64,000 nt of DNA, taken from positions 1,248,001 through 1,312,000 of the forward strand of contig CBDHHL010000056.1 in the NCBI GenBank assembly GCA_965263355.1, given 5' to 3'. Shown here piece after piece: positions 2,252 to 19,357 of the stretch; the stretch's first letter is position 1; each line of letters starts with the position of its first letter. This DNA is from Leptolyngbyaceae cyanobacterium (lineage in GTDB: Bacteria > Cyanobacteriota > Cyanobacteriia > Phormidesmidales > Phormidesmidaceae). The position numbers were made by a program, and so were the translations under genes. The notes below the pieces were generated by a model. That model did no database searches and was not told the origin of the DNA. It was given only the letters and a program-made list of their open reading frames with translations.

Positions 2252-2299
2252 TTAGACTATGGCCTAATATAAGCATCTGTGCATCGACCGTAAGGTCTA
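2252..2299. promoter_or_regulatory. Divergent version of the paired 7-2-7 boxes in the pseudokinase/NarL intergenic region
   Basis: TTAGACTATGGCCTAA (2252-2267) and TCGACCGTAAGGTCTA (2284-2299), 32 bp apart. Confidence 0.4.
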
Positions 2300-2341
2300 T
2301 TTCCTAGTGCCTAATCCAGGTTCAGCAAAAGGTTATCTGTT

Positions 2342-3049
2342 ATGCCGTCGATCCGTATTGCCATTATCGAAGACCATGACTTGACTCGTATTGGTTTACG
2401 GACAACGCTACAGCAGCAAGATGGTTTGGAAGTCTTGGGAGAAGCGGCAGATGCCTCAACAGGGTTGCAGCTTTTGAAGGAGCTAAAGCCGGATGTAGCT
2501 ATTGTGGATATTAATTTGCCAGATGCGGATGGGATTGCTGTGACTCAACAGTTGCGGACACTACAGGCAAAGGAGCCAGAGTTTACCACCCGAGTGCTGA
2601 TTTTGACGATGCATGAAAATCCAGAGCGGGTGCTGGCGGCGTTTGCAGCAGGGGCTGACTCCTACTGTGTCAAAACGATTAAGACACCCATGTTAGTGGA
2701 GGCGATTCAAACGACGTTTGAGGGGCATGGTTGGATTGACCCGACGATTGCTGACATCGTGCTGAGCCAGGTGCGGCAAGAAGGCTCTAATCTGGTGGCG
2801 ACGGATATCAGCATCCATGGGCTGACGGAAGATGAGGTGGCTTCTATCGGTGAGAATAAGCTGACCAAGCGTGAATTGGATGTACTAGAGCTGATTGTGG
2901 CCGGGTACAGCAATACTGAAATTGGGGAAAAGCTATTTTTAAACTTGGGGACGGTCAAAACCCATGTGCGTAATATTTTGAGTAAACTCGCAGCTAGCGA
3001 TCGCACCCAGGCTGCTGTTAAAGCATTGCGTTCAGGCTTAGTTAAATAA
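2342..3049 (+). CDS. NarL/FixJ-family response regulator (REC + LuxR HTH), OrrA-like
   Basis: IIEDHDLTRIGL…VDINLP receiver; LTKRELDVLELIVAGYSNTEIGEKLFLNLGTVKTHVRNIL LuxR HTH. OrrA likeness is from memory. Confidence 0.9.
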   Translation: MPSIRIAIIEDHDLTRIGLRTTLQQQDGLEVLGEAADASTGLQLLKELKPDVAIVDINLPDADGIAVTQQLRTLQAKEPEFTTRVLILTMHENPERVLAAFAAGADSYCVKTIKTPMLVEAIQTTFEGHGWIDPTIADIVLSQVRQEGSNLVATDISIHGLTEDEVASIGENKLTKRELDVLELIVAGYSNTEIGEKLFLNLGTVKTHVRNILSKLAASDRTQAAVKALRSGLVK

Positions 3050-3060
3050 GGGATAGTTGT

Positions 3061-4542
3061 TCAAGTGTCAGGTTCTTCAGCCACTAGCCCTTGACTGCCA
3101 AGAATACTTTGTAAGCCTTCCATCGGGTCACTGACCTGCAGGCCATAGCAAGTGATCTTAAACTCACGCATGGTCTTCTCAAAATCGCTGAGCCGCTTTT
3201 TAACCACACTGATGGACTTGCGCAGTTCAATTTGTCCATCAGTGTGGCGCTCCATATATCGCATCAGAATCAAATTATCAGCCAGGTAGGTAAACCCAGC
3301 GGATGTAGCCCGTGTATCCCCTGCCAATGTCTCAGTTTCGTTAATTAACAACACCGTAACGCCCATGTTGATCAAATATTTACAGAGAGCATGGAGTTGA
3401 GCGATTAAGTTTTCATCGGCCATTGAAACACTGTAGCCAGATACGCTATCAATCATGACAATGTGAACATCTCGTTCCTCAACTTCGTTACGGACAATAT
3501 TGGAAAATTCATCAGGCGTATACTGGAGTGGCTCAATTTTGGAGATGACCAAGGTTGCCTGGTCAATCATGGCTTGAGCCGGAATATTGATAGCGTTGCA
3601 GCGTTTCAAAATACTGGAAACTTCTTCCTCAAAGGTATAGACTACCGAGCGCTCCCCTCGTCCTGCTGCTTCTTTCATAAACTGGAGACCAATGGTGGTC
3701 TTTCCCACACCGCTGGGGCCACTAAATACCGAGACCGTTCCTCGCTCAATGCCTCCATGCAAGAGTTCATCCAATGCCGGGATACCTGAGGATATAGGCT
3801 GCTGATCAAACTCACGCTTGTGTAAACGGGGCAATAATCTGGGAAAGACCTGAATACCTTGATTGCTCAGACGGATAGAATGACTGCCATCTCGAAAATC
3901 TGAGGTGCGAAACTTAGTCACCCGCAATGACCGTCGATCATCATTTAATACCAGGGTAATGACGCCATCGCTAAGAAACTGCAAGTCATTGTCTGGCAGT
4001 TCAGCGCTATGTTCTGACGTAAACAAAACTGTAGATCCCTGATCCAGAAGAAACCGAGTCAGCGATAGAACCTGTTTACGAAACTGAAACAGATCCGCAG
4101 TCAAGTAGCGAAATTGGGTCATGGAGTCAATAAAGATTCGGTGTGGATGCAGTGACTCCACAGTTTCCATAATCGCTTTAGAGATGGGTTCCCGTTCTAC
4201 CTCTGAAGCTGAAAAAATGTCATAGGACTGAGTCTCGGTAAAAAACTTAGCATCCGGACTGAGATCGAGCACTTCAACATCGTTGAGATTAAGACCAATG
4301 TGTTCTCCACTGGCAAGGATTTGCTCCCCCGGTTCGCTGAGGGTAATCAGCAACGTTTTTTCCCCAGCCCGTACACCTGCTGCCAGGAAATGGATGCCCA
4401 ATGTGGTTTTGCCAGTGCCTGGGCCGCCTCTCACCAAATAGGCACGCTTTTGAATTAAGCCGCCCTGGAGGATTTCATCCAAACCAGGTATACCAGTTGA
4501 TAACCTGGGAGTATCAAGGTTGCCAGAGGGAGTATCCACCAT
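3061..4542 (-). CDS. KaiC-like double RecA-domain ATPase (non-clock type)
   Basis: Two P-loops GGPGTGKT and GPSGVGKT; STGIPGLD/SSGIPALD starts; TFEE and KKR in the second domain; start taken at ATG 4542 (ORF extends to 4569). Confidence 0.88.
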   Translation of the reverse strand: MVDTPSGNLDTPRLSTGIPGLDEILQGGLIQKRAYLVRGGPGTGKTTLGIHFLAAGVRAGEKTLLITLSEPGEQILASGEHIGLNLNDVEVLDLSPDAKFFTETQSYDIFSASEVEREPISKAIMETVESLHPHRIFIDSMTQFRYLTADLFQFRKQVLSLTRFLLDQGSTVLFTSEHSAELPDNDLQFLSDGVITLVLNDDRRSLRVTKFRTSDFRDGSHSIRLSNQGIQVFPRLLPRLHKREFDQQPISSGIPALDELLHGGIERGTVSVFSGPSGVGKTTIGLQFMKEAAGRGERSVVYTFEEEVSSILKRCNAINIPAQAMIDQATLVISKIEPLQYTPDEFSNIVRNEVEERDVHIVMIDSVSGYSVSMADENLIAQLHALCKYLINMGVTVLLINETETLAGDTRATSAGFTYLADNLILMRYMERHTDGQIELRKSISVVKKRLSDFEKTMREFKITCYGLQVSDPMEGLQSILGSQGLVAEEPDT

Positions 4543-4608
4543 AGCACTACGGTTACAGCGTAAGGTCATCTATAACTATAGTTATCTATTGACCCAGTCG
4601 AATCATCT

Positions 4609-5733
4609 ATGCACAGGATATTGCTGTTAATTCAGCATCATAAAAATTATCAGCTTCTATCCGATTTCTTGGCTAAAGATTATGACGTTTTGCCTGCGGA
4701 GCCTCTAACGGATAGTGACAAACCTGCTCTGAATGGTCGTGATTTTGATCTGTGTCTGGTGGATGGCACCACATTAAATCAGGTATTGCCATGGTTGACA
4801 AAGACTCGTGCGGAGGTTGCTCCCCTTTGGTTACCCGTACTTTTAGTGCTGCCAAAGGGAAAAGCGGACCAGGTAAGTCATCAATGCTGGCAGAGCGTAG
4901 ATGAAATCATTGCCACACCGATTGAAAAGGTAGAACTGATGACTCGCATAGGCATGTTGTTAAAGGTCCATCAGCTATCACAAGACTTACTAGAAGCGAA
5001 TCAGGTTCTGCAGCAGCGGAATGAACAGCTACAGGAACTCAACCGACTAAAGTCTCAGTTTGTATCCATGGTTTCCCATGAGTTTCAGAATCCATTAGGG
5101 ACGGTTTCCGGTTTTTTACAGCTATTATCTCGGCAAGGGGACGAATTAGCTTTACCTAAGCGGCAGGAGTACCTTGCAAAAGCCCAGGCTACTCTCAAGC
5201 ACCTCAAGGCACTGGTCAACGACGTGTTGATTATTGGTCGGGTCGGTGTCGGCAAACTAAAATTTGAGCCAGCTACTACACATCTGATCGAGCTTTGTCA
5301 GACTCTGATGGAAGAAGTGCGATTTAATATGGCACAGTCTCGAACTATAGAATTTTCGGTTGTACCTGGATTTGAGAAAACGTTATCTGCAATAATGGTA
5401 GATAAAAACCTCTTAAGACAAATTGTGACGAATTTATTGACTAATGCTCTCAAATACTCTCCACAAGATTGCCCAGTAAGGTTTTCTTTAGGGTGTCAGG
5501 AAGGGACAATTAGTTTACGCATTCAAGATCATGGGATTGGTATTCCTGAAGAGGAACAGAAACGGCTGTTTGAGCCATTCTATCGAGCGTCTAACGTTAG
5601 TTCACAGCCAGGGACAGGATTAGGCCTGGCGATTACCCAGCAATGTGTGGAACTACATGGGGGAGTGATTACATTCACGAGTGATCTACAAGCAGGAACA
5701 ACATTTGAAGTCCGTTTGCCGCTCCTAACTTAG
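4609..5733 (+). CDS. Hybrid histidine kinase with atypical N-terminal receiver
   Basis: SHEFQNPL, NLLTNALKYS, DHGIG, GTGLGL; receiver lacks the acidic pair (LLLIQHH); divergent from the KaiC-like gene. Confidence 0.88.
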   Translation: MHRILLLIQHHKNYQLLSDFLAKDYDVLPAEPLTDSDKPALNGRDFDLCLVDGTTLNQVLPWLTKTRAEVAPLWLPVLLVLPKGKADQVSHQCWQSVDEIIATPIEKVELMTRIGMLLKVHQLSQDLLEANQVLQQRNEQLQELNRLKSQFVSMVSHEFQNPLGTVSGFLQLLSRQGDELALPKRQEYLAKAQATLKHLKALVNDVLIIGRVGVGKLKFEPATTHLIELCQTLMEEVRFNMAQSRTIEFSVVPGFEKTLSAIMVDKNLLRQIVTNLLTNALKYSPQDCPVRFSLGCQEGTISLRIQDHGIGIPEEEQKRLFEPFYRASNVSSQPGTGLGLAITQQCVELHGGVITFTSDLQAGTTFEVRLPLLT

Positions 5734-6225
5734 GAATGCCATATGGTCAAATAGATTGCCATTAATTCTTGATGACTCATATTTTGCCAGGGTGATGATG
5801 GTTGTGTCCTTCTCTTGGCGGAAAACATATTGATTTTTTTCTTCGGTGCAAGACCTTTGCCTAAGGTTAAGATGTTTAGGGATTTACTATTGCTCAAAAA
5901 AGAGTTTTGGCGACATAGTTTCCCGCGTTTTCGAGATAGAGACTTCCGATGTGTTTGCATAGTTTCAACAGGCTTATGACTCCGAGGGAAAATGGTCTTA
6001 GCATTAGTTTTTAGAGTCAGATGGCGAGCAAAGAACATCTTTGGATAACCTCACTTATGAAGAAACTCCCGCTTCCAGATATAGAAGCGGGACATTGTAG
6101 GCAAATAACAATCTGTCTCTGAAGGCTAGCTTCAAGCATAAGTGTAGTAGAACATAAATGGATTGACTTAACCTGCCATAAAAACTGACCTAAAATGCCA
6201 ATAGTCTCTAATATGGCTACCGTCA

Positions 6226-7239
6226 TTGGAAAACATTTATTATTCTGTCTCAGTTAAACTGGTTCAAGGCATTTTAGCTGCAGCCGAGTTAATGGAATTG
6301 CCAGCGGAAGAACTGCTTGCTGCCATTGGGCTTTCTACAACATCAGTCACCAATACTGATGAACGATTACCCCATAGTCAGTTTGTTGCTCTCTGGCGTG
6401 AAATTGCCCATCGTAGCCAAGACCCGGCTATTGGTGTGCGGCTAGCTGAGTTAACTAAACTAGAAACCTTTAATGTGACTGGCTATGCCATGAGCCATAG
6501 CCCTACCCTGGGGAGTGCTTTACGACGATTAATACGCTACAGCAGATTACTCTATGAGGGCATGGCCTTTGGTCTTTCAGTCGAACCTGAGCTGGCTACA
6601 TTGAATTATCAAGTGGTTAATGCAGCCTTACCACTCCCAGCGGTAAGTGTTGGCTGGACCCTGGCTAATATCGTACTTTGGGCCAGACGTAGTCTAGGTT
6701 GCGACTTGCCATTGATACAAGTAACGTTTCAACAACCGCCTTTGGCTGATAGTGCTGCCTATCGACAATTTTTTCAAGCTGAGCTGGTATTTAACAACGA
6801 GGCCAATGCGATCTGTTTCCATCCGACTTGGCTGGATCAGCCCTTACCTAATGCCGATTCGGGTCTCTGTGACTTGCTTGAAGGCTATGCTGAATCCTTA
6901 TTACTAAAGCTGCCACAGCCTGAAAGCTTTGTGACTCAATTACAGAACCTGATAGCGAAGGAATTGAGGGGACGTGAGCCCAAGCTGGATGCGATCTCAA
7001 CTCGTATGGGCTATTCTCCCCGCACACTTCAGCGCAAACTACAACAGGCGGGCACGTCGTTCAATAAGGTATTAGACGATATCCGGCGAACCCTAGCCTT
7101 TCAGTATCTGAAGGAAACTGCCCTTACAGCTAGCGAAATTGCCTTTCTACTGGGCTTTTCAGACAACAGTGCCTTTAATCGAGCCTTTCGCCGTTGGACA
7201 GGGACAACACCTGGTGAATATCGCAGGAAATCTTCTTAA
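6226..7239 (+). CDS. AraC-family transcriptional regulator (OruR-like)
   Basis: C-terminal SPRTLQRKL…EIAFLLGFSDNSAFNRAFRRWTGTTPGEYR; start codon uncertain. Confidence 0.9.
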   Translation: MENIYYSVSVKLVQGILAAAELMELPAEELLAAIGLSTTSVTNTDERLPHSQFVALWREIAHRSQDPAIGVRLAELTKLETFNVTGYAMSHSPTLGSALRRLIRYSRLLYEGMAFGLSVEPELATLNYQVVNAALPLPAVSVGWTLANIVLWARRSLGCDLPLIQVTFQQPPLADSAAYRQFFQAELVFNNEANAICFHPTWLDQPLPNADSGLCDLLEGYAESLLLKLPQPESFVTQLQNLIAKELRGREPKLDAISTRMGYSPRTLQRKLQQAGTSFNKVLDDIRRTLAFQYLKETALTASEIAFLLGFSDNSAFNRAFRRWTGTTPGEYRRKSS

Positions 7240-7251
7240 AACAAAGGCATA

Positions 7252-7299
7252 TCATCCAAATGGATGATGTGGTTTCCTAAAAATCATCCTTGCGATAGA
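7252..7299 (+). promoter_or_regulatory. Paired 7-2-7 operator boxes
   Basis: TCATCCAAATGGATGA (7252-7267) and TCATCCTTGCGATAGA (7284-7299). Confidence 0.75.
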
Positions 7300-7474
7300 T
7301 AGCATCTGAGAGTTTTAAAGGGTTGAATAAAATTCTGTCGATAGAGATAGGAAAGTCTTTCACAGATTCAAAACAGGTTATTTAAAGCTGTGTTACCTAG
7401 ATCAGTATCTCTATTTGATTTGACTTGATTTCTGTAACTGTTGGCGATTTACATTTCTGTAAAGGAGAAATGCG

Positions 7475-7663
7475 ATGGTTAACGCTAATGTTGGCACCAC
7501 TCATGGTTTTTGGGTTCAGGCAGGGACTCGAAATCATAAAGAGTTTTTCGTTCCGGAAGCACTTTATCAACTGATAAGTGTTGAGGCGTCTGGCTGGGCT
7601 TGGATTTGTCAAGATAATTCTACTTGCCATTTTATAGACCCTGACAACTTACGACAGTTGTAG
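7475..7663 (+). CDS. Small hypothetical protein (62 aa)
   Basis: AAGGAG RBS upstream; lies downstream of paired boxes. Confidence 0.5.
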   Translation: MVNANVGTTHGFWVQAGTRNHKEFFVPEALYQLISVEASGWAWICQDNSTCHFIDPDNLRQL

Positions 7664-7796
7664 TGTTTCAAGAAAAAGTCATGTGCTATGAATCACTTTT
7701 CACTATTCGTAGCAGAACAATCTTTACGTAAAGATTGATATTTCCCGGGATATCCTTAAACCAAATCTCATTTTTTATTTCGATGTGGGGAGAAAG

Positions 7797-8000
7797 ATGA
7801 AACGCTCACTTGCCTTTTTAATATTATTGTTCACGATGTTGCTATTGCCATTAACTGCCTGCAATTCGTCAGGTCAAGATGATTTAGATAATACTGCAGA
7901 GACAGAAGAAGTGCTGCCAGATTCACCAGATGAGTCAGCTGTGGACGAGGAAGTGCCTGGTGAAATTCCTGGTACTCCAGAAGATTCTTCTGCTGAGTAG
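7797..8000 (+). CDS. Small acidic lipoprotein
   Basis: MKR + hydrophobic stretch + LTAC lipobox, then D/E/P-rich disordered tail. Confidence 0.7.
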   Translation: MKRSLAFLILLFTMLLLPLTACNSSGQDDLDNTAETEEVLPDSPDESAVDEEVPGEIPGTPEDSSAE

Positions 8001-8014
8001 TCTATCACTAGATA

Positions 8015-8057
8015 ATGAGAGACAATCAAAATATCAGTCATTTTGATTGTCTCTCAT
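8015..8057. terminator. Perfect 18-bp stem hairpin after lipoprotein gene
   Basis: ATGAGAGACAATCAAAAT-N7-ATTTTGATTGTCTCTCAT. Confidence 0.6.
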
Positions 8058-8284
8058 CATTAAAACTTATGGTGTTTCAGAAAAAAGTCAGCTATCAGCG
8101 TAAACGACGCAGGCTTCCATCTCGAAAGCGTCGTAAGTTTCGTCGATAAAAGTAACTGCAAGCATGGGTTTGATCAAATTGAGAAAGACTTTATATGGGA
8201 TGCATTCAACCATTGGTTTATCTCACAGACTTTGAATAAATCCTGTGTTTAAATCTCAATGCTTTTAGCTTTGGACATTTTTCT

Positions 8285-8569
8285 ATGCCGATTTACGTTG
8301 GCCATTTGAGCAATGAAGTCACACAGGATGACCTGATTCAACTTTTTGAGGAGTACGGCACAGTCAAAAGTGTTTATTTACCCACAAACAAAGAAACAGG
8401 CCAGCCACGTGGCTCTGCGTTTGTGGAGATGAAAACCGATACAGAAGAGGCCAAAGCTATAGAGGCTCTGAATGGTTCTAAGTTGATGGGACGAAATATT
8501 AAAGTTAGTAAGGCAAAGCCTCCTAAGCAAGAAGATTCCTCTGAAGGTGATCGGAAAAAGAATCAATGA
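8285..8569 (+). CDS. RRM RNA-binding protein (Rbp family)
   Basis: RNP2 IYVGHL, RNP1 RGSAFVEM. Confidence 0.9.
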   Translation: MPIYVGHLSNEVTQDDLIQLFEEYGTVKSVYLPTNKETGQPRGSAFVEMKTDTEEAKAIEALNGSKLMGRNIKVSKAKPPKQEDSSEGDRKKNQ

Positions 8570-8613
8570 GTTTTGTGTCCCCTTCAGACTTTAGTTTCTC
8601 TGACAATTAATAA

Positions 8614-9444
8614 ATGTTTCCTATGAAGTATATTCAACCATCAGTTGATTGCTCTAGATTCTTTTATGTAATTTCCCATGAGCGATCTGGCACTCATTTT
8701 TTGATTAACAGTATTCGAATGAATAGTGCTATTGATCTGGATTATCTATCTGTTGGCGAATGGTTTGGTCCTTATGATCAGCCTCAGACTCAATTTGAGC
8801 ATATTGATAGATGTTTTGATTCGCTTAGCTCTGAACGCCACTATATTTTGAAAAGTCATTGCGATCGCGCCCTATTCGAGCAACGCTACCCACAAAGCAA
8901 AGTCGTTTATATTATGAGAGACTATCGAGATGTTCTAGTCTCTTATTATCATTTTCTAGATGCCCATCTAGACCGGGCTCGAAAACATAATCCGGAAATT
9001 TCTCAGCTGTGGTTTACAACATTTTCCGAGTTTATACGATGTCCAATACCTGATTTCTTAAGGTTTAACTATTCCCTTTATGGAAATTTCTCATCTCCAA
9101 TAGAACGATGGCTAAATCATGTGCTGCACTGGCTCAGAAATCCGAATGATCTGATCAAAATCGTTACCTACAGACAGCTCTACTTATATGCCCAAGAAAC
9201 CATCCAGGAAATATTAGGTTTTCTAGAGTTACCCAGTCGAAAGGTCTTCACTCGTCCAACATTTGACAATGCCTACTCCGTTATGCCTAGAAAAGGAATC
9301 ATTGGAGACTGGAAAAACCACTTTACTATTGAAGATGCAGATTTCTTAAACGCGTTTATTCTAGAATACTGTCCTTTAATTGACCAATATTCTCAAGATG
9401 TTAGCACGATAGCCCGTGAGGCAAGCCTTAAAGTAGCTGCATAA
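8614..9444 (+). CDS. Sulfotransferase domain protein
   Basis: 5'-PSB SHERSGTHFL, KSH, 3'-PB RDYRDVLVSYY, RKGIIGDWKNHFT. Confidence 0.88.
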   Translation: MFPMKYIQPSVDCSRFFYVISHERSGTHFLINSIRMNSAIDLDYLSVGEWFGPYDQPQTQFEHIDRCFDSLSSERHYILKSHCDRALFEQRYPQSKVVYIMRDYRDVLVSYYHFLDAHLDRARKHNPEISQLWFTTFSEFIRCPIPDFLRFNYSLYGNFSSPIERWLNHVLHWLRNPNDLIKIVTYRQLYLYAQETIQEILGFLELPSRKVFTRPTFDNAYSVMPRKGIIGDWKNHFTIEDADFLNAFILEYCPLIDQYSQDVSTIAREASLKVAA

Positions 9445-9513
9445 AAAGTTAATAGCACTGTCTCATCTTAGAAGAATATTGGTAATACTTAAGCCCCTTA
9501 CGTAACAGCCATA

Positions 9514-9563
9514 TCATCCAAACGGATGATATGGAATACTTCAAAATTCAACCTTGCGATGGA
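9514..9563 (+). promoter_or_regulatory. Paired 7-2-7 operator boxes
   Basis: TCATCCAAACGGATGA (9514-9529, symmetry extends 9509-9534) and TCAACCTTGCGATGGA (9548-9563). Confidence 0.75.
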
Positions 9564-9715
9564 TGATTTTCCCTAGTCGTAGGTGCTTAAATAGGCATCT
9601 CCCAATATAAAAAGGAAAGCACTTTAGTCTAGGGAAGAGCCTACCAATCTATCTCAATACTTTGGATGCGTTCCTAAATCTAACTCTCTATACGCCTAGC
9701 TTTGGAGACCTCTTC

Positions 9716-10015
9716 ATGTCGGTTTATGTTGGCAATTTATCTTATGACCTTACAAAGGATGATCTGACGCAACTTTTTGCAGAATACGGTACCGTTAAAA
9801 GCGTTCACATACCTAAAGATAGAAAAACTGGTCAGCAGCGAGGTTTTGCTTTCGTTGAGATGGCAACTAATGAGGAAGAGGCTACAGCTATAGAGACTTT
9901 GAATAAGTCCGAGTTTATGGGACAAAAGATAAAAGTCAACTCTGCTAAGCCTCGTAAGCAAGGAACTAGTTCGAAAAAGAAGAAGGACGTTTCTGACAGC
10001 AATCAAGGTTGTTGA
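9716..10015 (+). CDS. RRM RNA-binding protein (Rbp family)
   Basis: MSVYVGNLSY, RGFAFVEM; TTTGGAGA leader typical of cyanobacterial rbp genes. Confidence 0.92.
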   Translation: MSVYVGNLSYDLTKDDLTQLFAEYGTVKSVHIPKDRKTGQQRGFAFVEMATNEEEATAIETLNKSEFMGQKIKVNSAKPRKQGTSSKKKKDVSDSNQGC

Positions 10016-10044
10016 TAATCCTGCAAGGGTAAGGATGCATTGTA

Positions 10045-10386
10045 GTGGTGCATAAAATACCAAATGACTCCGATATGCGAGTTACTAGTATCCGTTTTGA
10101 GAGAGAGCTTATCGATAAGCTGAAAACTCTGGCAGATAAACGCGGGTATCAATCACTCGTAAGAGACGTGCTGTGGGATTATGTGCGTCAGCATTCGGAT
10201 GATCCTGGTTCCCAAATACAGCGCCAGCAAATCAGAGTGATTATGGCAGCTGATGCTCAACGTCGTGAGCGTTGCGCTTTAACAGGCACCATTATTGAAC
10301 CTGAAGAGGAAATGTGGTTAGCATTGACAACAGATTATGAGTTGGTATCGTTAAACATTGATAGCTTGTTAAATGATCTTGATTAG
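10045..10386 (+). CDS. Ribbon-helix-helix-like DNA-binding protein
   Basis: VTSIRFERELIDKLKTLA…YQSLVRDVLWDYV fits the strand-helix-helix pattern. Confidence 0.65.
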   Translation: MVHKIPNDSDMRVTSIRFERELIDKLKTLADKRGYQSLVRDVLWDYVRQHSDDPGSQIQRQQIRVIMAADAQRRERCALTGTIIEPEEEMWLALTTDYELVSLNIDSLLNDLD

Positions 10387-10512
10387 TTGAAAAAGTTGTT
10401 CCAAAGGCTCTCGATATGTCTGCGTTTCGCAAAACTGAATTAGACTACTCACTCAAGCTTACTCAAGGGAACTCGGCAGAAGTTTTTGATTCCTAAAACG
10501 TATGAATTGAGA

Positions 10513-11321: not shown

Positions 11322-11443
11322 TACAAGTCCTTGGTGAATACTAAAAATTCCTCTTTTCTTTATTGAAGGAGCTGTACGCATCCATTACAGTCGCTTTAGC
11401 ATTGCTTGGATTACTGTTCGAAGATATGTGTTTTTGGTAAATA

Positions 11444-11491
11444 TCATCCTTTCGGACGATGGGATGCACAAAACTTTATCCGCAGGGTAGA
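11444..11491 (+). promoter_or_regulatory. Paired 7-2-7 operator boxes
   Basis: TCATCCTTTCGGACGA (11444-11459) and TTATCCGCAGGGTAGA (11476-11491); TATTGT 19 bp after the second box. Confidence 0.72.
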
Positions 11492-11551
11492 GGTAAATTT
11501 TGAAGGTCTGTATTGTAATAGTGTTAGACTCATTGGTGAGGTAGGTCAGCG

Positions 11552-11755
11552 ATGAATAGTTTTCCTTGTTGCTCAGCGTCCCTATTACAGCATGTGCGTG
11601 GTTGTGAAATTTATTGGTTCTGTCGCCAGTGCTATGCAGAAATGCCTAACTTGAGTGACTTTATGCGATCGCAAGCCCATACGTTTACTAATACCCACTT
11701 ACCTCAGCTGCAATTAGTCAAGAATCACGCTTTAGGGATAGCATACGTGGCTTAA
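11552..11755 (+). CDS. Small Cys-rich (zinc-ribbon-like) cyanobacterial protein
   Basis: PCCS…LLQHVR…YWFCRQC…EMP; GAGGT RBS. Confidence 0.7.
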   Translation: MNSFPCCSASLLQHVRGCEIYWFCRQCYAEMPNLSDFMRSQAHTFTNTHLPQLQLVKNHALGIAYVA

Positions 11756-11994
11756 TCCCATAATTACCTGACCCGTCCGGGTATTTCCCAAGCGAGTCGT
11801 TTCAAAGTTTATGCCTACGAGCTTCCCGCTTCTACATCCAGGAGCGGGATTTTCTTTAAGGAGGAGAAATATGGTTATTTCATACGCTCATCAGCTGATT
11901 TGAAGCTCATCACTTCTCTATGCAAGAACCATAACGTTGTTGATGTAGTCAAAAAATGGGCTCAGTCGCTATCTCATAGGAGAGCGTTTTGATA

Positions 11995-14073
11995 ATGGAA
12001 CAATTTTCTGTCTGGTTAACAGTGGATCCTATTGTGTCATTTACAATTCTGCTACTAGCCAGTTTAACGGTTCCACCTCTGGTAGAAAAACTACGATTGC
12101 CAGGGTTGGTTGGACTACTATTAGCCGGAATCATCTTGGGACCCCATGGTCTAGGTTGGCTCAAGGCTGAGAGCGAAACTGTGAAATTGCTTTCAGATAT
12201 TGGCAAAGTGTACCTGATGTTTGTGGCAGGCCTCGAAATTGATATGCAAGCCTTTCGCAAAACTCGAAATCGTTCACTAGCTTTTGGGCTATTGACCTTT
12301 GCCATCCCACTGATCACAGGAACAGCTCTGGGGTTAGGTCTGAATATGGGTTGGAATGCTGCTATTTTACTTGGCTCTTTGCTAGCATCCCATACATTGC
12401 TGGCCTATCCGCTATTACAACGATTAGGTGTTGTACATAATCAGGCCGTCACAATTACCATAGGAGCCACAATCTTTACAGATATTGGGGCATTGTTGGT
12501 ACTGGCTATTTGTGTCTCAATTTATCAAGGCTCATTTACCTGGTTCCGTTTACTAATTCAACTAGTAATCTTGGGACTTTACGCTGCATTAATCTTGATT
12601 GGCTTGGATCGTCTAGGTAAAACTTATTTCCGCCGCAGTGGTAATGATGAAGGAAACCAGTTCCTATTTATTTTACTCGCACTCTTTGTATCGTCTGTTG
12701 GCGCACAGGTGATCCAAACTGAAAATATTGTGGGTGCATTTTTAGCCGGTTTAGCCGTTAATGATGTACTGGGTAAAAGCACAGTTAAAGAGAAAGTTGA
12801 ATTTGTTGGGACTGTTCTATTCATTCCTTTTTTCTTTATAGCGATGGGGCTATTGATTAATGTACCTGTATTTATTAGAGTTCTTTTGACTGACACGACA
12901 ACTGTTGCTGCTGTGGTTGCAGGGCTGATTGGCAGCAAATTTATTGCCGCCTGGTGTATCAAACAACTTTACAGCTATTCTTGGGTCGAGACCTTCACCA
13001 TGTGGTCTCTCTCATTGCCCCAGGTAGCGGCTACCCTGGCAGCAGCGCTTGTAGGTTATCAAGTAGGGCTTTTGTCAGAGGCTGTTTTTAATAGCATCAT
13101 TGTACTGATGCTTGTCACGTCTACATTAGGACCCGTTTTAACCCACCGTTATGCCCGTCATTTGTCAGTTCCAGATCGGCCACTGCCATTTATGACGCTA
13201 CCTATTTCTCAATCTAGTCGAAAAGCTGGTCCAGTCTTACCTTCGTTTAATGTTGTCGTTCCAGTTTATAATCCGGAGACAGAAGCTTATCTAGTAGAAA
13301 TGGCTGGACGACTAGCACAGCAACAGCATGGAAAACTGTTCCCATTGGCTATTGCTCAGCCAGTAACATCTCTGCATGACCCAACATTTACTAAGATTCT
13401 TCAACAAACACATCGACTCTTAACGCAGGCTACTGATATTGGTCAGCGTTTAGGTGTTCCAACTCATTCCCTACTTCGAATAGATCGCGATATTGCTAAT
13501 GGTATTTGCCATCACAGTTGTGAACAATCAGCTCAACTGATCGTAATGGGCTATGGCGATATGACAACGCTACAAGCTCGTCTATTGGGCAGTACTGTAG
13601 GTCAAGTCTTTGACTATAGTACTGCACCGGTAGCGGTTATGAAGTTGCTCCAGTCTCCATTACAACTACAACGGGTTATCGTCCCTATTTGGGATATCCG
13701 TCCATATTTCAACGCTCAAATTAAATTTGCTCAACACGTTGCTGCTGCTACTCAGACCATAGTCACTGTGCTCTATATCTGTTCTCCTCAAGCAACGGCC
13801 TCAGAACAAATGCTCTATTCGCATCAGATTCGACGGGTTCTGAATAGACAATCTTCTACAACTGATAACTCATTACCTAAGATTAAAATCAAAGTCGTGC
13901 CTCATAATGATGTTTCCATGATTGTTCTTCGATTTACACAATTGAGGGATTTAGTGGTGTTACACGGTCGAGATTTAATACTAGTCCGAGAAATACCTAC
14001 CAGTGAGTGGGGGACAACCCTACTACAAAAACTGACTTGTTCAGTTGCTTTATTTAAGGAACCAACGCTGTGA
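11995..14073 (+). CDS. CPA2 cation:proton antiporter with C-terminal USP-like domains (NhaS5-like)
   Basis: Multi-TM N-terminus (LMFVAGLEID, TIFTDIGAL, GAFLAGL), then VVVPVYNP…LIVMG USP region. Confidence 0.9.
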   Translation: MEQFSVWLTVDPIVSFTILLLASLTVPPLVEKLRLPGLVGLLLAGIILGPHGLGWLKAESETVKLLSDIGKVYLMFVAGLEIDMQAFRKTRNRSLAFGLLTFAIPLITGTALGLGLNMGWNAAILLGSLLASHTLLAYPLLQRLGVVHNQAVTITIGATIFTDIGALLVLAICVSIYQGSFTWFRLLIQLVILGLYAALILIGLDRLGKTYFRRSGNDEGNQFLFILLALFVSSVGAQVIQTENIVGAFLAGLAVNDVLGKSTVKEKVEFVGTVLFIPFFFIAMGLLINVPVFIRVLLTDTTTVAAVVAGLIGSKFIAAWCIKQLYSYSWVETFTMWSLSLPQVAATLAAALVGYQVGLLSEAVFNSIIVLMLVTSTLGPVLTHRYARHLSVPDRPLPFMTLPISQSSRKAGPVLPSFNVVVPVYNPETEAYLVEMAGRLAQQQHGKLFPLAIAQPVTSLHDPTFTKILQQTHRLLTQATDIGQRLGVPTHSLLRIDRDIANGICHHSCEQSAQLIVMGYGDMTTLQARLLGSTVGQVFDYSTAPVAVMKLLQSPLQLQRVIVPIWDIRPYFNAQIKFAQHVAAATQTIVTVLYICSPQATASEQMLYSHQIRRVLNRQSSTTDNSLPKIKIKVVPHNDVSMIVLRFTQLRDLVVLHGRDLILVREIPTSEWGTTLLQKLTCSVALFKEPTL

Positions 14074-14173
14074 TGATATCAGTCAATCTAAAGGACGATA
14101 GCAGTTAGCGTTGGTTTCAAATTTCGCATCATCCGCTGCCCTTGTTCACGCAATTGTTTTGCGGTTATTCGCG

Positions 14174-14785
14174 TCAAATTTTGCTTGTCCACGTTCGTAA
14201 CCCCTGCATGATCATATCGATGGACACTGTTCCGACGTAAAGTGCAGTTACACGACCCACAATTTCGACATATCGCTGAATTAACTTCTCACGCGTCGAA
14301 CGGACATAGTCATAAAGTGTTTTCAGAAGAATCATCACGAAAACAGAGATTGACAAGGCAGCCATGATAGTGCCGCAAGCCGCAAGTGGTTGAAGTCTCT
14401 TACCTATAACTACACTTGCGCTTAACGTGCCAGGTCCAATGAGTACAGGCATCGCGATCGCCCCAGCAAGCTGTTCGGATTCGCCGCGTAAGATTTCAAT
14501 TGCTGTCGGCCCACGAAAAAAAAATTGGAGACCGATCAACAAGAAAATAATCCCACCGAATATTTGAAAGGATGCAAATTCGGCTTGTATGATGCTTGAA
14601 AAAATCGCATCACCAGCGAGGGCGAAACAATTGAAGACTAACGCCGCAATGATTGAGGCACGGATGAGGACCGAGCGGAATATCCTTGCTTCGACGGTTT
14701 GAATGACATCTAGAAGGTAGATAACCACGAGAAAAGGGTTAAGCAGGGCGAGCAATAATGAAATCGCTCGAATTACATCGGACAT
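14174..14785 (-). CDS. MarC-family membrane protein
   Basis: LLNPF, SFQIFGGIIF, AMPVLIGPGT motifs; about 6 TM segments. Confidence 0.88.
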   Translation of the reverse strand: MSDVIRAISLLLALLNPFLVVIYLLDVIQTVEARIFRSVLIRASIIAALVFNCFALAGDAIFSSIIQAEFASFQIFGGIIFLLIGLQFFFRGPTAIEILRGESEQLAGAIAMPVLIGPGTLSASVVIGKRLQPLAACGTIMAALSISVFVMILLKTLYDYVRSTREKLIQRYVEIVGRVTALYVGTVSIDMIMQGLRTWTSKI

Positions 14786-15224
14786 TTGAATTCAGCCAAA
14801 AGTTACGAAGTTCAACCGTCTCCAAGAACTTATAAATATTGTACCTGCAAGAATTGCAAGCCTTATTAAAACTCGTTACTATCTTGTCGGCTGTAATGAA
14901 GATTTAGGGTGTAACAACCAGTAAAAAATCTTAACATACAAGTACACTGCCGCCGCTACTCCCTAACTATATATTCAGCGTCAGATCAGACAGATAAGCT
15001 CCGTAATCCTGCAATCTTATCTGTCATTTTTGGATGATATGAGATTTCTCCAAAAGAAGATAAATCACTATAGTATCTCAAGTATTTTTGGTGGCTTTTT
15101 ATTCAGGCTCGCTACCCAGTAGGTTATCTTTATTCTCCTTAAGAACTTCCCATAGAGTACAAATCTTCCGATAGGCATCTTCTACAGAAAGCTTTCCACT
15201 TGTTTGTAGTGCACAGATAGTAAC

Positions 15225-15363
15225 GGGCACTGGTTCCGTGTAATGGGAAAAATGCCTGAAAGGCCTATAGAGTAACGATTTGAGCGATCTTCTCCCAGAT
15301 CGGCTGTATCCCTTGCATTACAAGCGTTTTGGCTGAATCATCCCATCAGGCGGAACCAGTCCC
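15225..15363. mobile_element. MITE (~139 bp, no ORF)
   Basis: Terminal inverted repeats ACTGGTTCCGTGTAATGGGA (15229-15248) and TCCCATCAGGCGGAACCAGT (15341-15360), 17/20 match. Confidence 0.7.
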
Positions 15364-15450
15364 TAGATTAAGACTGTTGAAAAAACACCTATGCCCTAAT
15401 AGAGTTTACTTGTGCTGTATGAAGGCATGAGTCGTTGTAAAAATGCATCT

Positions 15451-16443
15451 TTAAGGATATTGCCAGTATTCACTCTCTAAATGATTAATGATTTTTTCAG
15501 CAAAGGCTTCTCCGGTAAAAATTTCAGCATCCCAGAGCCCGCCGGTACTAAAAACATTAATTTCAATCAGCAGATTGTTCATAAAGTCGAGTCCTACTAG
15601 AAAAAGGCCATCTTGCACTAGTTTAGATCCTATGGCTGTTACGATTTTACGCATTTCATCAGTGATCGTAGCCGGTTGAGCTTGTCCACCAGCATGGGTA
15701 TTGCTGCGAAAATCACCCTTAGCTGGAACTCGTCGAATCGCACCAGCTTTGTCATTAATTTCGAGTATATTCCCGTCAAAAACAACAACACGGGTATCTC
15801 CAGCATCTGCGCCAGGTAGGCAACGTTGAACCATGACCAGTCCTTGACGCAGAATTACATCCATGATTTGATTCAGGTTTTTATCTTGTGCTGACGCTAC
15901 AAAGAAGACATCATTGCCACGAGTTCCTTGAAGTGGTTTTAGAACAACAGGATCATTCAGGCGGCGGATAAAGTCGATGATTTCAGCCCGGTTTTGGCTA
16001 ACCAACGTCTCTGGTCGAGTAAACGCAGGTAGCTCCAACAGGTATAGCTTGGTTGATGCGCGAATGAGACCATCGGGCTGGTTAATCACGCAAACTCCTT
16101 GATCTTGGCACTGACGGGCCAAAGCCAGAGCAGCATGGTGGGCAGCTGCATGATGCAGATCTCGCGCTGGATTGGTGCGAATAAACAGAATATCTGTTTC
16201 GGATAGGGATCTGCTGGTGGGTTGGGTTTTCGAGATATCTTTGACTAAAATCTCTAAATCCCTAATTTCATTGGTTAGGCATCGAACCTGAGCCCATGGT
16301 TGACCGTCTGGTTGACAAGATAAATACCTGACACCTGTGATACTCACTTGGTGTCCTCGATGGATGGCAGCGCTAATTAGTATAGCAGTAGTTTGATCAG
16401 GCTGTATGTCGGTTGGGTCGTTGACCAGAAATGTAATCTTCAT
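15451..16443 (-). CDS. Glutathione synthetase-like (GshB-type) ATP-grasp ligase
   Basis: FIRTNP, VLKPLQGTRGNDVF, GDTRV, DFRSNTHAGG, VGLDF, IEINVFSTGG. Confidence 0.85.
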   Translation of the reverse strand: MKITFLVNDPTDIQPDQTTAILISAAIHRGHQVSITGVRYLSCQPDGQPWAQVRCLTNEIRDLEILVKDISKTQPTSRSLSETDILFIRTNPARDLHHAAAHHAALALARQCQDQGVCVINQPDGLIRASTKLYLLELPAFTRPETLVSQNRAEIIDFIRRLNDPVVLKPLQGTRGNDVFFVASAQDKNLNQIMDVILRQGLVMVQRCLPGADAGDTRVVVFDGNILEINDKAGAIRRVPAKGDFRSNTHAGGQAQPATITDEMRKIVTAIGSKLVQDGLFLVGLDFMNNLLIEINVFSTGGLWDAEIFTGEAFAEKIINHLESEYWQYP

Positions 16444-16456
16444 TGAGGTGAGTACT

Positions 16457-17521
16457 TTAATGGACCGCTAAATGTTCCAGGGTTGGAGCCTCTGGATTCT
16501 TCTCTTCGATGCTCGTATGGAAGAAATGGTTATCGGGGGTTGCGATCGCACCCAAATTCAAAATTCTGGCTCCTGTTTGAGCCACTGGATTCACACTTTT
16601 ACCAATCACAATACCTCTGCTGGGGGCTCGATACTGGCCAATAACCTCTCCAAAAATATTACGCTGTTGAGCAATGACCTGATCCGCTTCAACCAATTCT
16701 GTAGGCTTTGGCAGTACCTCCAAGAGGCCGCCCTGATCCGCATATATCCAATCAGAGCTTTCACATAAAACTGGTGGTGGTCCTGCACTCACGGTACGGC
16801 GAGGCAGCATGCCAATCTCAGACATTACCCGCCGCACACCGCTGAGAGATGCCTTAATATGTCGTAGTTGAAATACCTGCGGATCACCAATTTCGACAGT
16901 AATTGCAGGAATTCCTAAATCCATCGCTGTTCCTCGCAAGGTACGATCCGACGGCTCATTGTGCAGAATGATCTGTGGTCTTTGCAAATACGCCATCTTG
17001 GCCGTTACTTCATTGGTCATGTCGGCCCGCACGTAAAGTGAATTGATATTGCCAAAGCTGGCTGTATGTAAATCAATCAAATACTCAAAGTTGCGAACAA
17101 TACGGTTAACAAAGCGATGGGCATAAATTTCAGCAATGCTTCCGTTCGACTTCCCCGGCATCACGCGGTTCATATCAGTGCGGTCGTCAAAGGTGCGCGC
17201 ATTGTTGAGATACGCAGGAACATTCACCACAATCACCCCAACAACAGTTCCCCGTAAGGCTTTTAGGTCTAAGGTTTCAAACAAACGGTGAATGACTGGA
17301 ATACCGTTAAGTTCATTACCATGCAGGGCTGCAGTTAGTCCAAGAATCGGACCTGGGTGTTTGCCTCGCCCCACCATAACTGGCAAGCGAAGCGTTCGCC
17401 CCAATCCATCATTAATCAGATCAACTAGTAACCTTGAGCAAGCAGCCTGAGGCCATTGCTCAAGATTCAATTCCTTCACAACATAGGCACCCGGAAAATC
17501 TAGAGACGGTCGGCTACTCAT
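16457..17521 (-). CDS. Succinylglutamate desuccinylase/aspartoacylase (M14-like Zn hydrolase)
   Basis: ALHGNELNG (HxxE), DMNRVMPG, IDLHT, ITVEIG, C-terminal barrel-sandwich; start at ATG 17521 with AAGGA RBS. Confidence 0.9.
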   Translation of the reverse strand: MSSRPSLDFPGAYVVKELNLEQWPQAACSRLLVDLINDGLGRTLRLPVMVGRGKHPGPILGLTAALHGNELNGIPVIHRLFETLDLKALRGTVVGVIVVNVPAYLNNARTFDDRTDMNRVMPGKSNGSIAEIYAHRFVNRIVRNFEYLIDLHTASFGNINSLYVRADMTNEVTAKMAYLQRPQIILHNEPSDRTLRGTAMDLGIPAITVEIGDPQVFQLRHIKASLSGVRRVMSEIGMLPRRTVSAGPPPVLCESSDWIYADQGGLLEVLPKPTELVEADQVIAQQRNIFGEVIGQYRAPSRGIVIGKSVNPVAQTGARILNLGAIATPDNHFFHTSIEEKNPEAPTLEHLAVH

Positions 17522-17595
17522 GGTTTCCTTACACCTACATATCTTGGACATCTGCGTTGGAGCAATCTGGATAACAGCATGCTTACAAATCAACA

Positions 17596-19038
17596 CTACT
17601 CATAAATATCTCTCACAAACGCCGGATCCGGATTGAGTGAGGCAAACAAACGTCGACGAAAAGTACCCTTTTGGGTAGTTAGTTTTTGCGCCATTTTATC
17701 AATGGCAATCACGGACAAAATCGTTTGTAGATAGCCCTCGATCAGATCGTCTAAACCAATGCCCAGTTGATTAAAATCCCGACTATCCATCAGCATTAGC
17801 CGTTTAGATTCACTACTCCATGAGCCATCCTCATTTTTAATCGACAAATTGGTACCCAACATATCCCATGAGGAACATATCTCATCCAGAATTGTTGTTA
17901 ATGGTTTACGAGCACGTCTTGCATAGATTGCAACTGGATAAGCGCCTGCTGGACCCATGCCAATCATCATGCGTAAATCGGCTACATAGATGGCCTGGTG
18001 ACGATCAGGTAATGTACCCAAATGATAGAATCGCCCCTGTTTAGTTTGAGAACTCCAGCCAGAATTACCCACAAGACTTTGAACAATAAAGCGATCAAAC
18101 TGAAAGTCCAGCTGCATAAACTCTTCGAGTTCATATTTGTTGGTTAATGTGTAAACCCCCTGTCCCGCATTGCTGTAAGGATCTTTAACCACTGCAATAC
18201 CTCCCATCCGTTCCACCCAAAGAGGCACTTCTTCTTTGGCTACATCCCAAATAGTTTCAGGCGTGCGAATCATTAACCCTGTGGATTCTAGTTCAGCATT
18301 ATAAAAATCATAAGCTTTGGCTGCCATCAATTTGTTGCGACCACCGCTCAAACAGACGAGCACAGGGTTTAAGATAGCTGTACGAGTTAGAACAGGAATT
18401 CTGCTCCAGGGACGCTGAGTTACATAGCGAAAGGCAGCTCGGATAGCCTCCCATTCTCCTGTAGGGGTAAGAATTTCCATAACTCCATCCACAAAGCGAA
18501 CGGGTAGTTGATGATCATCTTGGAAACAAGGTACCCACCAGACTGGTTCTCCGGCCACTTCAGCCAGCATTGCAGCATAACCAGACGTTTCCATCTCATT
18601 TTTATCGTATAGAACAGCCAGTCCTCCTTTGGGCAATCGTCGACGTTTCAGAATAGGCATAAATGTCTGCTCTAGCAGCATACGATAGCCACTCTGTTCT
18701 TGGGCATCATTGCCAAAGGGCATTGACTTTTGGCCTGAAGGGCAAGAGTTTGTCTCAATAATAATGATACGTCGTACACCATCATCTGTCGTTGCTGGAA
18801 ACAAATCTGCTCCACCCCATTGAAAGTATTTGGTAGTGTGTGCTAAAACATCACGAACAGCCTTCGGATCAACTTCTGGATGGAGATGGACATAGCGATC
18901 AGCAATACGATTATTTCCTAAACTCAGGAAATACTGCACCATAGGGTGAATCTGAGCATTGAGCACCCGTGGATAGAAGTGTTCAGGAGTATCGAAACTG
19001 GCGGGAAAAACCTGCTGCACAGATTTTATCTGTTTCAT
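17596..19038 (-). CDS. Uncharacterised circularly permuted ATP-grasp ligase
   Basis: N-terminal IIETNSCPSG (ExN..PSG), then NKL, VVKDPYSNAGQGV, FIVQ, DLR; AGGAGG RBS before ATG 19038. Confidence 0.7.
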   Translation of the reverse strand: MKQIKSVQQVFPASFDTPEHFYPRVLNAQIHPMVQYFLSLGNNRIADRYVHLHPEVDPKAVRDVLAHTTKYFQWGGADLFPATTDDGVRRIIIIETNSCPSGQKSMPFGNDAQEQSGYRMLLEQTFMPILKRRRLPKGGLAVLYDKNEMETSGYAAMLAEVAGEPVWWVPCFQDDHQLPVRFVDGVMEILTPTGEWEAIRAAFRYVTQRPWSRIPVLTRTAILNPVLVCLSGGRNKLMAAKAYDFYNAELESTGLMIRTPETIWDVAKEEVPLWVERMGGIAVVKDPYSNAGQGVYTLTNKYELEEFMQLDFQFDRFIVQSLVGNSGWSSQTKQGRFYHLGTLPDRHQAIYVADLRMMIGMGPAGAYPVAIYARRARKPLTTILDEICSSWDMLGTNLSIKNEDGSWSSESKRLMLMDSRDFNQLGIGLDDLIEGYLQTILSVIAIDKMAQKLTTQKGTFRRRLFASLNPDPAFVRDIYE

Positions 19039-19168
19039 AACAAGACCTCCTGCTACCAATGTGGTTATGAAAATTCATAGAAAAATAGGTGTTGACAAGA
19101 TCGGTCATCCTATTTCTAGAGATCCCGTCCCCCGGTCATCATTGAAATTGAGTTTGGCTTAGATCACC

Positions 19169-19217
19169 TCTACCAGATGGATGAAAAAAACGGCTCAAAA
19201 TTCACCCGTTCGGTTGA
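19169..19217 (-). promoter_or_regulatory. Paired 7-2-7 operator boxes facing the ligase operon
   Basis: Minus strand: TCAACCGAACGGGTGA (19202-19217), then TCATCCATCTGGTAGA (19169-19184), 33 bp apart. Confidence 0.7.
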
Positions 19218-19309
19218 TGGCAGTTTCAATAATGTGACCGTTTGGCTAATGAAAAATTTTGGAGAGCCTTCTTGTAGTCACACCCTTTTTGCATAAAGAA
19301 TTTTTCGCA

Positions 19310-19357
19310 TCCCTCTTAAGGATGATTTGACTTAACTAATTTTGTCCGGGGGATAGA
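19310..19357 (+). promoter_or_regulatory. Paired 7-2-7 operator boxes facing the sigma factor
   Basis: TCCCTCTTAAGGATGA (19310-19325) and TTGTCCGGGGGATAGA (19342-19357), 32 bp apart. Confidence 0.65.

Follow-up and report, generated by a model that had tools for sequence, protein, structure and literature searches.

Six paired boxes around TCATCC-N4-GGATGA in a Leptolyngbyaceae cyanobacterium look like sites of a NarL/LuxR-type regulator

A 64,000-nucleotide stretch of DNA from a Leptolyngbyaceae cyanobacterium (contig CBDHHL010000056.1, positions 1,248,001 to 1,312,000; hereafter the window) carries six pairs of 16-bp boxes, P1 to P6, in each of which a distal box close to the palindrome TCATCC-N4-GGATGA is followed 32-34 bp later by a weaker proximal box. 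These box pairs are real, specific and polar, and chance is excluded as their origin. They look like sites of a NarL/LuxR-type regulator, and the explanation to which we incline with moderate confidence is that the six pairs are operators, laid out as a strong and a weak site, of a local LuxR/NarL-type activator with MalT-type half-sites, namely the response regulator encoded at 2342-3049. Binding as such, activation as opposed to repression, the identity of the binder and the stimulus are what we infer from the DNA sequence.

Position, specificity and anatomy of the box pairs

All six pairs were re-read from the 64-kb sequence at the positions given in a preliminary description of this DNA (Table 1). 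The distances from distal to proximal box, start to start, are 32, 34, 33, 32, 32 and 33 bp for P1, P2, P3, P4, P5 and P6, respectively, with spacers of 16-18 bp between the boxes, and the start codons lie 61-284 nt 3' of the proximal boxes. The proximal boxes end in TAGA or CAGA, as described, in five of six cases, that of P2 ending in TGGA instead. The polarity is uniform, as six of six pairs face the next gene and the strand flips to minus for P5, the pair of the ligase operon, which shares one divergent spacer with P6. Beyond 20 kb, pattern scans and paired weight-matrix scans returned no pair in the remainder of the window, again in agreement with the description. Its 7-2-7 geometry had to be given up: the boxes are 6-4-6 repeats in which positions 7-10 vary, both layouts spanning 16 bp. 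The NarL heptamer is TACYYMT, arranged as 7-2-7, and such a site was not found in the boxes, the half-site being TCATCC and positions 7-10 being unconserved.

With up to one mismatch, TCATCC-N4-GGATGA matches the window (GC content 45%) four times, namely three times exactly (P1, P2 and P3) and once with one mismatch (P4), compared to 0.15 matches expected, and none of 100 shuffles reached four; at the same tolerance, the N5 version of the palindrome has no match in the window. In a census of all 4096 hexamers, TCATCC was the only one to form more than one perfect 6-N4-6 palindrome (three copies), a number that was reached in none of 100 Markov simulations. Scanned with the paired weight matrix, P1 to P6 reach 41.9-49.1 bits, or 24.5-39.7 bits by leave-one-out, compared to 15.4 bits for the next-best non-mirror match in the window, at most 22.6 bits for the mirror readings of the six sites and 10.9 bits for the 99.99th percentile. 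Since the regions of P1 to P6 outside the boxes are unlike each other, with chance-like pairwise identities of 0.12-0.45 and only P1 and P2 slightly alike (0.42-0.45), the six sites are not copies of a mobile or other repeat.

The bases T1, C6, G11, G15 and A16 are common to all 12 boxes and C5 is found in 11 of them; an A precedes the box in six of six cases and a T follows it in five of six. The right halves of the distal boxes read GGATGA in four of six cases and are one base off in the others (GGACGA, GGGTGA), and the left halves are the exact complement of GGATGA in four of six. The proximal boxes follow the pattern T-N3-CC-N4-GRTAGA, with a left half near TCATCC and the right half GRTAGA in five of six, and carry T13 and A14 in five of six cases, as opposed to A13 and T14, each in five of six, in the distal boxes. 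Judged by these positions, the proximal box is more than a decayed copy of the distal one, and the swap at positions 13 and 14 produces the TnGA start of a -35-like hexamer. The -10-like hexamers that had been described 19 nt past the box at two pairs are confined to P3 and P4, where the -35-like hexamer lies 17 nt before them; taken from these hexamers, the predicted transcription start lies about 32 nt past the box at P3 and P4, the other four promoters being ambiguous in this respect. A good -35 hexamer is present in none of the six promoters, and a sigma-70 scan found no good promoter at P2 to P6 and no enrichment. We read the proximal box as a probable trade-off, in which one sequence serves both as half-site for a regulator and as a poor -35 hexamer, a layout that would be expected of an activator-dependent promoter.

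Half-site, known systems and candidate regulator

Helix-turn-helix domains of the LuxR family are documented to recognise the half-site of the boxes, as it equals the core of the MalT box and the hexamers of a palindrome from Actinoplanes sp. SE50/110. According to excerpts of the respective study, the Actinoplanes motif, detected by MEME as TCATCC-5 nt-GGATGA, overlaps the -35 region of 17 mapped starts in a region of 51 genes, with 34.4 ± 1.0 nt between its 3' end and the downstream start (compared to the predicted 32 nt at P3 and P4), and 42 of the 51 genes are expressed at a lower level when a LuxR-family MalT gene located within the region is deleted; the core of the MalT box of E. coli and Klebsiella is given as GGA(T/G)GA (PMC7567727; this and the articles cited below are used from excerpts). 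The inverted half-sites are common to Actinoplanes and the window, as are the position over the -35 region (predicted here), the clustering of many promoters in one neighbourhood that encodes a LuxR-family regulator and the mixed, poorly annotated genes. The two cases differ in the spacer (N5 there, N4 here), in the single box per promoter there compared to a strong and a weak box 32-34 bp apart here, in the regulator (MalT-like there, a candidate response regulator of 235 amino acids here) and in the phylum, an actinobacterium there and a cyanobacterium here; moreover, the Actinoplanes regulon is backed by deletion and overexpression transcriptomes whereas the present one is known from sequence alone. 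The MalT system of E. coli and Klebsiella resembles the window in the core GGA(T/G)GA, in a box over the -35 region (predicted here), in several boxes per promoter and in the reading helix, KTHIRN there and KTHVRN here. It differs in that its boxes are asymmetric, G-flanked decamers (GGGGAKGAGG) as opposed to 16-bp palindromes with A/T flanks, so that the core hexamer of the MalT box is found in the window and the G-flanked decamer is not, and in its regulator, a large STAND protein that depends on ATP and maltotriose.

The gene at 2342-3049 is the only gene for a GerE-type helix-turn-helix protein in the window. Its product is a response regulator of the NarL/FixJ type, with a receiver domain (residues 6-123) whose conserved residues, assigned by eye, look intact (acidic pocket E10/D11, phospho-acceptor D56, T89 and K111) and a four-helix GerE domain (residues 173-228), for which the best solved matches are the DNA-binding domains of LiaR, VraR, GerE and NarL, those of LiaR and VraR being nearest (E 2e-16). 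In an alignment with E. coli MalT (malT taken from NC_000913), the recognition helix GTVKTHVRNIL falls on TTIKTHIRNLY, and the C-terminal domains of the two proteins are 44% identical. In representative genomes, the best matches of the regulator are 53-59% identical.

LiaR is reported to bind a site of the frame T(X)4C(X)4G(X)4A, with base contacts by Lys177 and Thr178, and to form a phosphorylation-driven tetramer on its consensus site and an adjoining weaker secondary site (PMC4482077). The frame T-N4-C-N4-G-N4-A fits 12 of the 12 boxes, though by itself it matches 588 of 128,000 positions of the window, and the regulator keeps the Lys and Thr that align with the two base-contacting residues. 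Apart from these features, LiaR and VraR (E. faecalis, S. aureus) share with the window the combination of a strong and a weaker site and a stress-response regulon (proposed here). Differences are found in the arrangement of the two LiaR sites, which adjoin in a footprint of about 43 bp compared to a pair spanning 48-50 bp here, in the secondary LiaR site, which is without likeness to the consensus whereas the left half-site is kept here, and in Lys174 of LiaR, which is Gly in the window regulator. With the MalT core half-site, the LiaR frame and the sole local GerE-type gene, the box type proposed in the preliminary description, NarL/LuxR-like, holds up; that this particular regulator binds goes a step further and is proposed from the same features.

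In the mechanism that we propose, one dimer of the regulator would occupy the strong upstream palindrome TCATCC-N4-GGATGA and a second dimer the weaker box, three helical turns downstream, whose right half GRTAGA would double as a poor -35 hexamer, and the regulator, once bound, would bring RNA polymerase to the promoter as MalT does at its own boxes. The most probable binder would be the phosphorylated product of 2342-3049, to which the adjacent kinases and KaiC-like ATPase would deliver the signal. The output would comprise six units encoding two RRM proteins, a sulfotransferase, a SLOG protein, small proteins, a CPA2 antiporter with Usp domain, an ATP-grasp operon and a group 2 sigma factor, the last of which would widen the response.

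Points against the assignment, rival readings and other genomes

A number of results weigh against a regulon driven by 2342-3049 as activator. Reading helices with the residues K-T-H are frequent in the family, so that the match to the MalT helix is suggestive only, and we know of no report of GGATGA binding by LiaR or VraR. The recognition helix of the regulator is the consensus of 80 homologues across cyanobacteria, and 1.22 Mb of DNA around these homologues contained no boxes beyond chance, which means that the homologues bind elsewhere or differently, or that 2342-3049 is not the binder; nor was a shared palindrome found upstream of the 80 homologues, the top hexamer being present in eight loci. 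No clear -10 hexamer was found at the 19-nt distance in P1, P2, P5 and P6, and the fixed distance thus holds for two of the six promoters only. The exact distal box was found at least once in 88 genomes of a 401-genome sample of the phylum, at most five times per genome and enriched in none (searches of cyanobacterial genomes were done on samples that partly overlap, and a negative result is to be read as not found in those searched). Finally, the diverged seventh pair that the preliminary description had placed in front of the regulator gene (2252/2284) is present, whereas its reading towards that gene is weak (-9.9 and +4.9 bits); it scores 15.4 bits in the direction of the divergent kinase gene. 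In the control loci (1.22 Mb, 2.4 million positions), 15.4 bits or more were reached just twice. The pair is notable for a 147-bp spacer and weak overall, and autoregulation of 2342-3049 would not be supported by it, as it scores in the opposite direction.

Among cyanobacterial response regulators, Rre1 and OrrA resemble the candidate in being of the LuxR/NarL type and activating stress genes (PMC13421787, PMC9804601, PMC13131328). Rre1, acting in Hik2/Hik34-Rre1, activates the group 2 sigma factor gene rpoD2/sigB and would provide a cyanobacterial parallel for the regulator-driven sigma cascade proposed for P6, and its proposed motif, GTNCGGK, differs from the boxes (review PMC13421787). This motif occurs 31 times in the window compared to 30 expected and is thus not enriched, a further point against our assignment should the family be that of Rre1. 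Two of the matches lie within boxes of P5 and P6, at 19208-19214 and 19344-19350, upstream of the group 2 sigma factor gene, and are probably coincidence. In the excerpts of the literature searched on OrrA (PMC9804601, PMC13131328), a binding motif was not found, and the literature searched, supplements being outside its scope, yielded no report of the TCATCC-N4-GGATGA motif in cyanobacteria.

A scan of metagenomes by the motif gave 54 loci, nearly all of which are, judged by eye from GC content and flanks, chance-like matches in GC-rich coding DNA. Two unrelated contigs, picked up solely through the motif, each encode a GerE-type protein whose helix contains TVKTHV: in L141, the pair TCATCCTTTGGGATGA-N18-TCATCCTTTAGGTGGA lies in a spacer beside a divergent gene for a 95-aa GerE-type protein (helix NTVKTHVKHIF), and in L130, which is GC-rich, 34 bp separate a perfect palindrome from the start codon of a downstream gene for a NarL-type regulator (helix TTVKTHVARIL). 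By their upstream placement, these two loci may lend some support to a regulator of this type; two of 54 is near chance in regulator-rich genomes, and in this respect they belong with the results listed above. Four further loci from one metagenome sample (L132, L146, L152 and L161) carry arrays of a different repeat, built on ATCCCCCCGGAT, and match the search pattern by chance. Another four (L119, L138, L140 and L158) are near-identical contigs with the pattern, which lies in a spacer in L138; a GerE-type gene is absent from all four.

The main rival, which we judge unlikely and yet keep closest in view, is that the boxes are read by a LuxR/MalT-type regulator encoded elsewhere, such as a STAND MalT-like protein or another NarL-type regulator, and that 2342-3049 is merely nearby. 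In favour of it, both published regulators tied to the half-site are, as far as the excerpts go, of the MalT type and not response regulators, the local reading helix is shared with the 80 homologues whose neighbourhoods lack boxes, and the regulator's own promoter has the weak pair only. On the other hand, no more than 17 kb separates the six sites from the sole GerE-type gene of the window, the Actinoplanes regulator sits inside its own regulon (PMC7567727), and the palindromes of L141 and L130 lie beside small or NarL-type GerE proteins and not beside proteins of MalT size. That the same protein and sites act in repression, with the proximal dimer blocking the -35 region and the distal dimer stabilising it, is improbable to us: the position of the proximal box over the predicted -35 and the L130 palindrome just 34 bp before a start codon would suit a repressor, but the lack of a good -35 hexamer at the six promoters and the outcome of the sigma-70 scan are typical of activator-dependent promoters, and MalT and LiaR activate from the same position (PMC7567727, PMC4482077).

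A binder of another fold, in particular the AraC-family regulator encoded at 6226-7239, is quite improbable, even though this gene adjoins P1, its stop codon lying 13 bp before the first box, and no further DNA-binding regulator apart from that at 2342-3049 is encoded in 1-21 kb. Proteins of the AraC family usually recognise direct repeats or asymmetric sequences, whereas three of the boxes are perfect palindromes, and LuxR-family proteins are documented to target the half-site; moreover, a box upstream of the AraC gene was not found.

Lastly, the strong palindromes could be RNA hairpins that terminate the transcripts of the preceding genes or stabilise their 3' ends, with no shared regulator behind them. 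In favour of this reading, each of the three exact boxes lies 3' of a co-directional gene and folds, together with its flanks, into a stem of 10-11 bp (-12.7 to -17.4 kcal/mol) with G-U pairs that are valid only on the plus-strand RNA, and in the related metagenome contig L164 the flanks of P2 are changed on both arms (CCATA/TATGG to GCACA/TGTGC) with preservation of an 11-bp stem. As the sole explanation of the boxes it is nevertheless very improbable, as hairpins need no fixed sequence and yet TCATCC comes back as half-site in 12 boxes, the non-palindromic proximal ones included; P5 and P6, which fold poorly (-7.7 and -5.2 kcal/mol), share a divergent spacer that has nothing to terminate; and the boxes are not followed by a U tract, P1 to P3 remaining uncalled by a terminator scan. 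The paired arm changes suggest either a second role of the palindrome as RNA or DNA hairpin or arm-to-arm correction within it, and a dual role of the distal box is possible at P1 to P3.

L164 (1595 bp, 83% identical) is a true orthologue of the P2 region, with the end of the sulfotransferase gene, the box pair and two tandem RRM genes in this order. Compared to P2, 12 of the 12 half-site bases of the distal box are kept, four of four spacer bases are changed (AAAC to GTTT), and the proximal box, with one change, still fits the frame; as the spacer region as a whole is 87% identical, this conservation test is of low power. Between the P2 palindrome (9509-9534) and positions 205-240 of L164, the four-base centre is fully flipped and the arms have changed in step, which looks like an inversion of the hairpin loop combined with arm-to-arm correction of the palindrome. 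The RRM gene behind P2 is tandemly duplicated in L164 (350-1050) together with a conserved 5' leader. Sequence reads of relatives cover 19120-19230 including both boxes of P5, with two changes of which the one listed (19158) is outside the boxes (X5), and part of P2 and P3 (X6 and X7).

Searches of genomes with the paired pattern gave no match in eight genomes of the G043 order, 90 genomes of the G700 order and five further genomes. In G043, a copy of the 487-aa protein encoded behind P5 (79% identical) has no upstream box, and the exact box is nowhere in this genome. In 401 genomes of the G001 order, the paired pattern matched twice (G491 and G531), in both cases within a gene for an EAL-domain protein, so these matches were put down to chance. 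One candidate from 31 scanned loci (G283) was rejected for its 24-bp spacer and the lack of a clear downstream gene. In all, some 900 cyanobacterial genomes gave no paired site other than those in coding genes. The motif looks lineage-specific.

Gene neighbourhood and meaning of the box pairs

The coordinates of the box pairs, the units behind them and the genes around the regulator, with domains assigned by Pfam and NCBIfam profile searches, are collected in Table 1.

Table 1 Box pairs and genes in the window, numbered on the 64-kb stretch.
Feature	Position	Strand	Score (bits)	Description
Hybrid receiver-histidine kinase	301..1440	-		Pfam Response_reg, HisKA, HATPase_c
HisKA-only protein	1445..2194	-		Divergent from regulator gene; Pfam HisKA E 2.9e-8
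Weak diverged box pair	boxes 2284-2299, 2252-2267	-	15.4	In 147-bp kinase/regulator spacer
NarL/LuxR-type response regulator	2342..3049	+		235 aa, candidate box binder; Pfam Response_reg 5.9e-24, GerE 3.4e-18
KaiC-like double-domain ATPase	3061..4569	-		Possible signal input; Pfam KaiC 1.7e-74; NCBIfam matches under KaiC cut-offs
Histidine kinase	4609..5733	+		Divergent from KaiC-like gene, 39-bp spacer; Pfam HisKA, HATPase_c
AraC-family regulator (QhpR/GliR-like)	6226..7239	+		Pfam Arabinose_bd, HTH_18; NCBIfam QhpR 1.1e-67, under cut-off
P1	distal 7252-7267, proximal 7284-7299	+	48.6	Distal box exact TCATCC-N4-GGATGA
Unit behind P1	RRM gene at 8285, sulfotransferase gene at 8614			62-aa open reading frame (ORF), 71-aa lipoprotein-like ORF, RRM protein, sulfotransferase
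P2	distal 9514-9529, proximal 9548-9563	+	49.1	Distal box exact, 11-4-11 palindrome including flanks
Unit behind P2	RRM gene 9662/9719-10015			RRM protein, 113-aa ORF
P3	distal 10513-10528, proximal 10546-10561	+	46.1	Distal box exact; TAGTTT 19 nt on
Unit behind P3	SLOG gene 10845-11321			284-nt leader with terminator-like hairpin, then SLOG protein
P4	distal 11444-11459, proximal 11476-11491	+	44.7	Distal box with one mismatch; TATTGT 19 nt on
Unit behind P4	ORF at 11552; antiporter gene 11989-14073			67-aa Cys-rich ORF, CPA2 antiporter with Usp domain
P5	distal 19217-19202, proximal 19184-19169	-	42.5	Distal box TCAACC..GGGTGA
Unit behind P5	19059-15451			487-aa protein, AstE/AspA-like hydrolase, GshB-like ATP-grasp ligase
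P6	distal 19310-19325, proximal 19342-19357	+	41.9	Distal box TCCCTC..GGATGA
Unit behind P6	19522-20550			Group 2 sigma factor

A homologue of the hybrid kinase (about 52% identity) adjoins the regulator homologue in 73 of the 80 cyanobacterial loci, and no homologue of the HisKA-only protein was found in these loci. A KaiC-like gene is near the regulator in just one of them, with 28% identity, so that the pair of KaiC-like and kinase genes appears to have been inserted into a conserved kinase-regulator module in this particular lineage. The AraC gene is followed by two small ORFs, a first RRM gene, the sulfotransferase gene, a second RRM gene, the 113-aa ORF and the SLOG gene, and these by the 67-aa Cys-rich ORF, the CPA2-Usp antiporter gene, a gene for a MarC protein, the minus-strand ligase operon and the divergent group 2 sigma factor gene. 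The RRM proteins are of the Rbp type and the sigma factor is of the cyanobacterial type; since its best match in five other genomes is only 61% identical, the sigma factor is an extra paralogue.

Some of the small products lack a Pfam match. The ORF at 7785-8000, behind P1, encodes an acidic 71-aa protein with a signal peptide and a lipobox-like LTAC, and that at 11552-11755, behind P4, a Cys-rich protein of 67 aa with a CxxxxxCxxC pattern. The N-terminal half of the 113-aa ORF (10045-10386) resembles, by eye, a ribbon-helix-helix DNA-binding motif of the antitoxin type, without a Pfam match at E ≤0.01. The 284-nt leader between P3 and the SLOG gene (10562-10844) contains a terminator-like hairpin and a T run at 10749-10776, and the output of P3 may be a short RNA or an attenuated leader, instead of or besides the SLOG message; Rfam had no match to the leader, nor to 1-24000 at E ≤0.1.

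Two suggestions of the preliminary description did not find support in these data. It had called the programme mobile; the region 1-21 kb is without integrase, transposase or tRNA genes, its GC content is only slightly lower (0.40-0.45), and a plasmid collection searched with 2000-21000 returned no match. Osmotic or desiccation stress as the stimulus had been proposed on the basis of gene names alone (RRM, cation antiporter-Usp, ligase operon and sigma factor).

The kind of system described here is known; new are its details, that is, the cyanobacterial setting, the N4 spacing, the fixed pairing of boxes and the response-regulator chassis. A more far-reaching picture, to which we give little credence, is that the KaiC-like ATPase and the kinases gate a NarL-type regulator with a MalT-type reading head, that this regulator runs a six-promoter stress regulon including its own sigma factor, and that at three promoters the strong operator is at the same time a selected RNA hairpin, one 26-bp palindrome ending one message and arming the next promoter.

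No principle of gene regulation is changed by these box pairs, which are an example of a box type known from MalT regulators. Defined operators are known for few cyanobacterial response regulators, that of Rre1 being a loose 7-mer only, and the layout of a strong and a weak box is a possible promoter design for synthetic biology. If our explanation is true, the window would hold a small, fully mapped cyanobacterial stress circuit of sensor kinases, KaiC-like ATPase, regulator, six two-site promoters and sigma factor, and the MalT-type head that reads GGATGA would also work on a plain two-component regulator.

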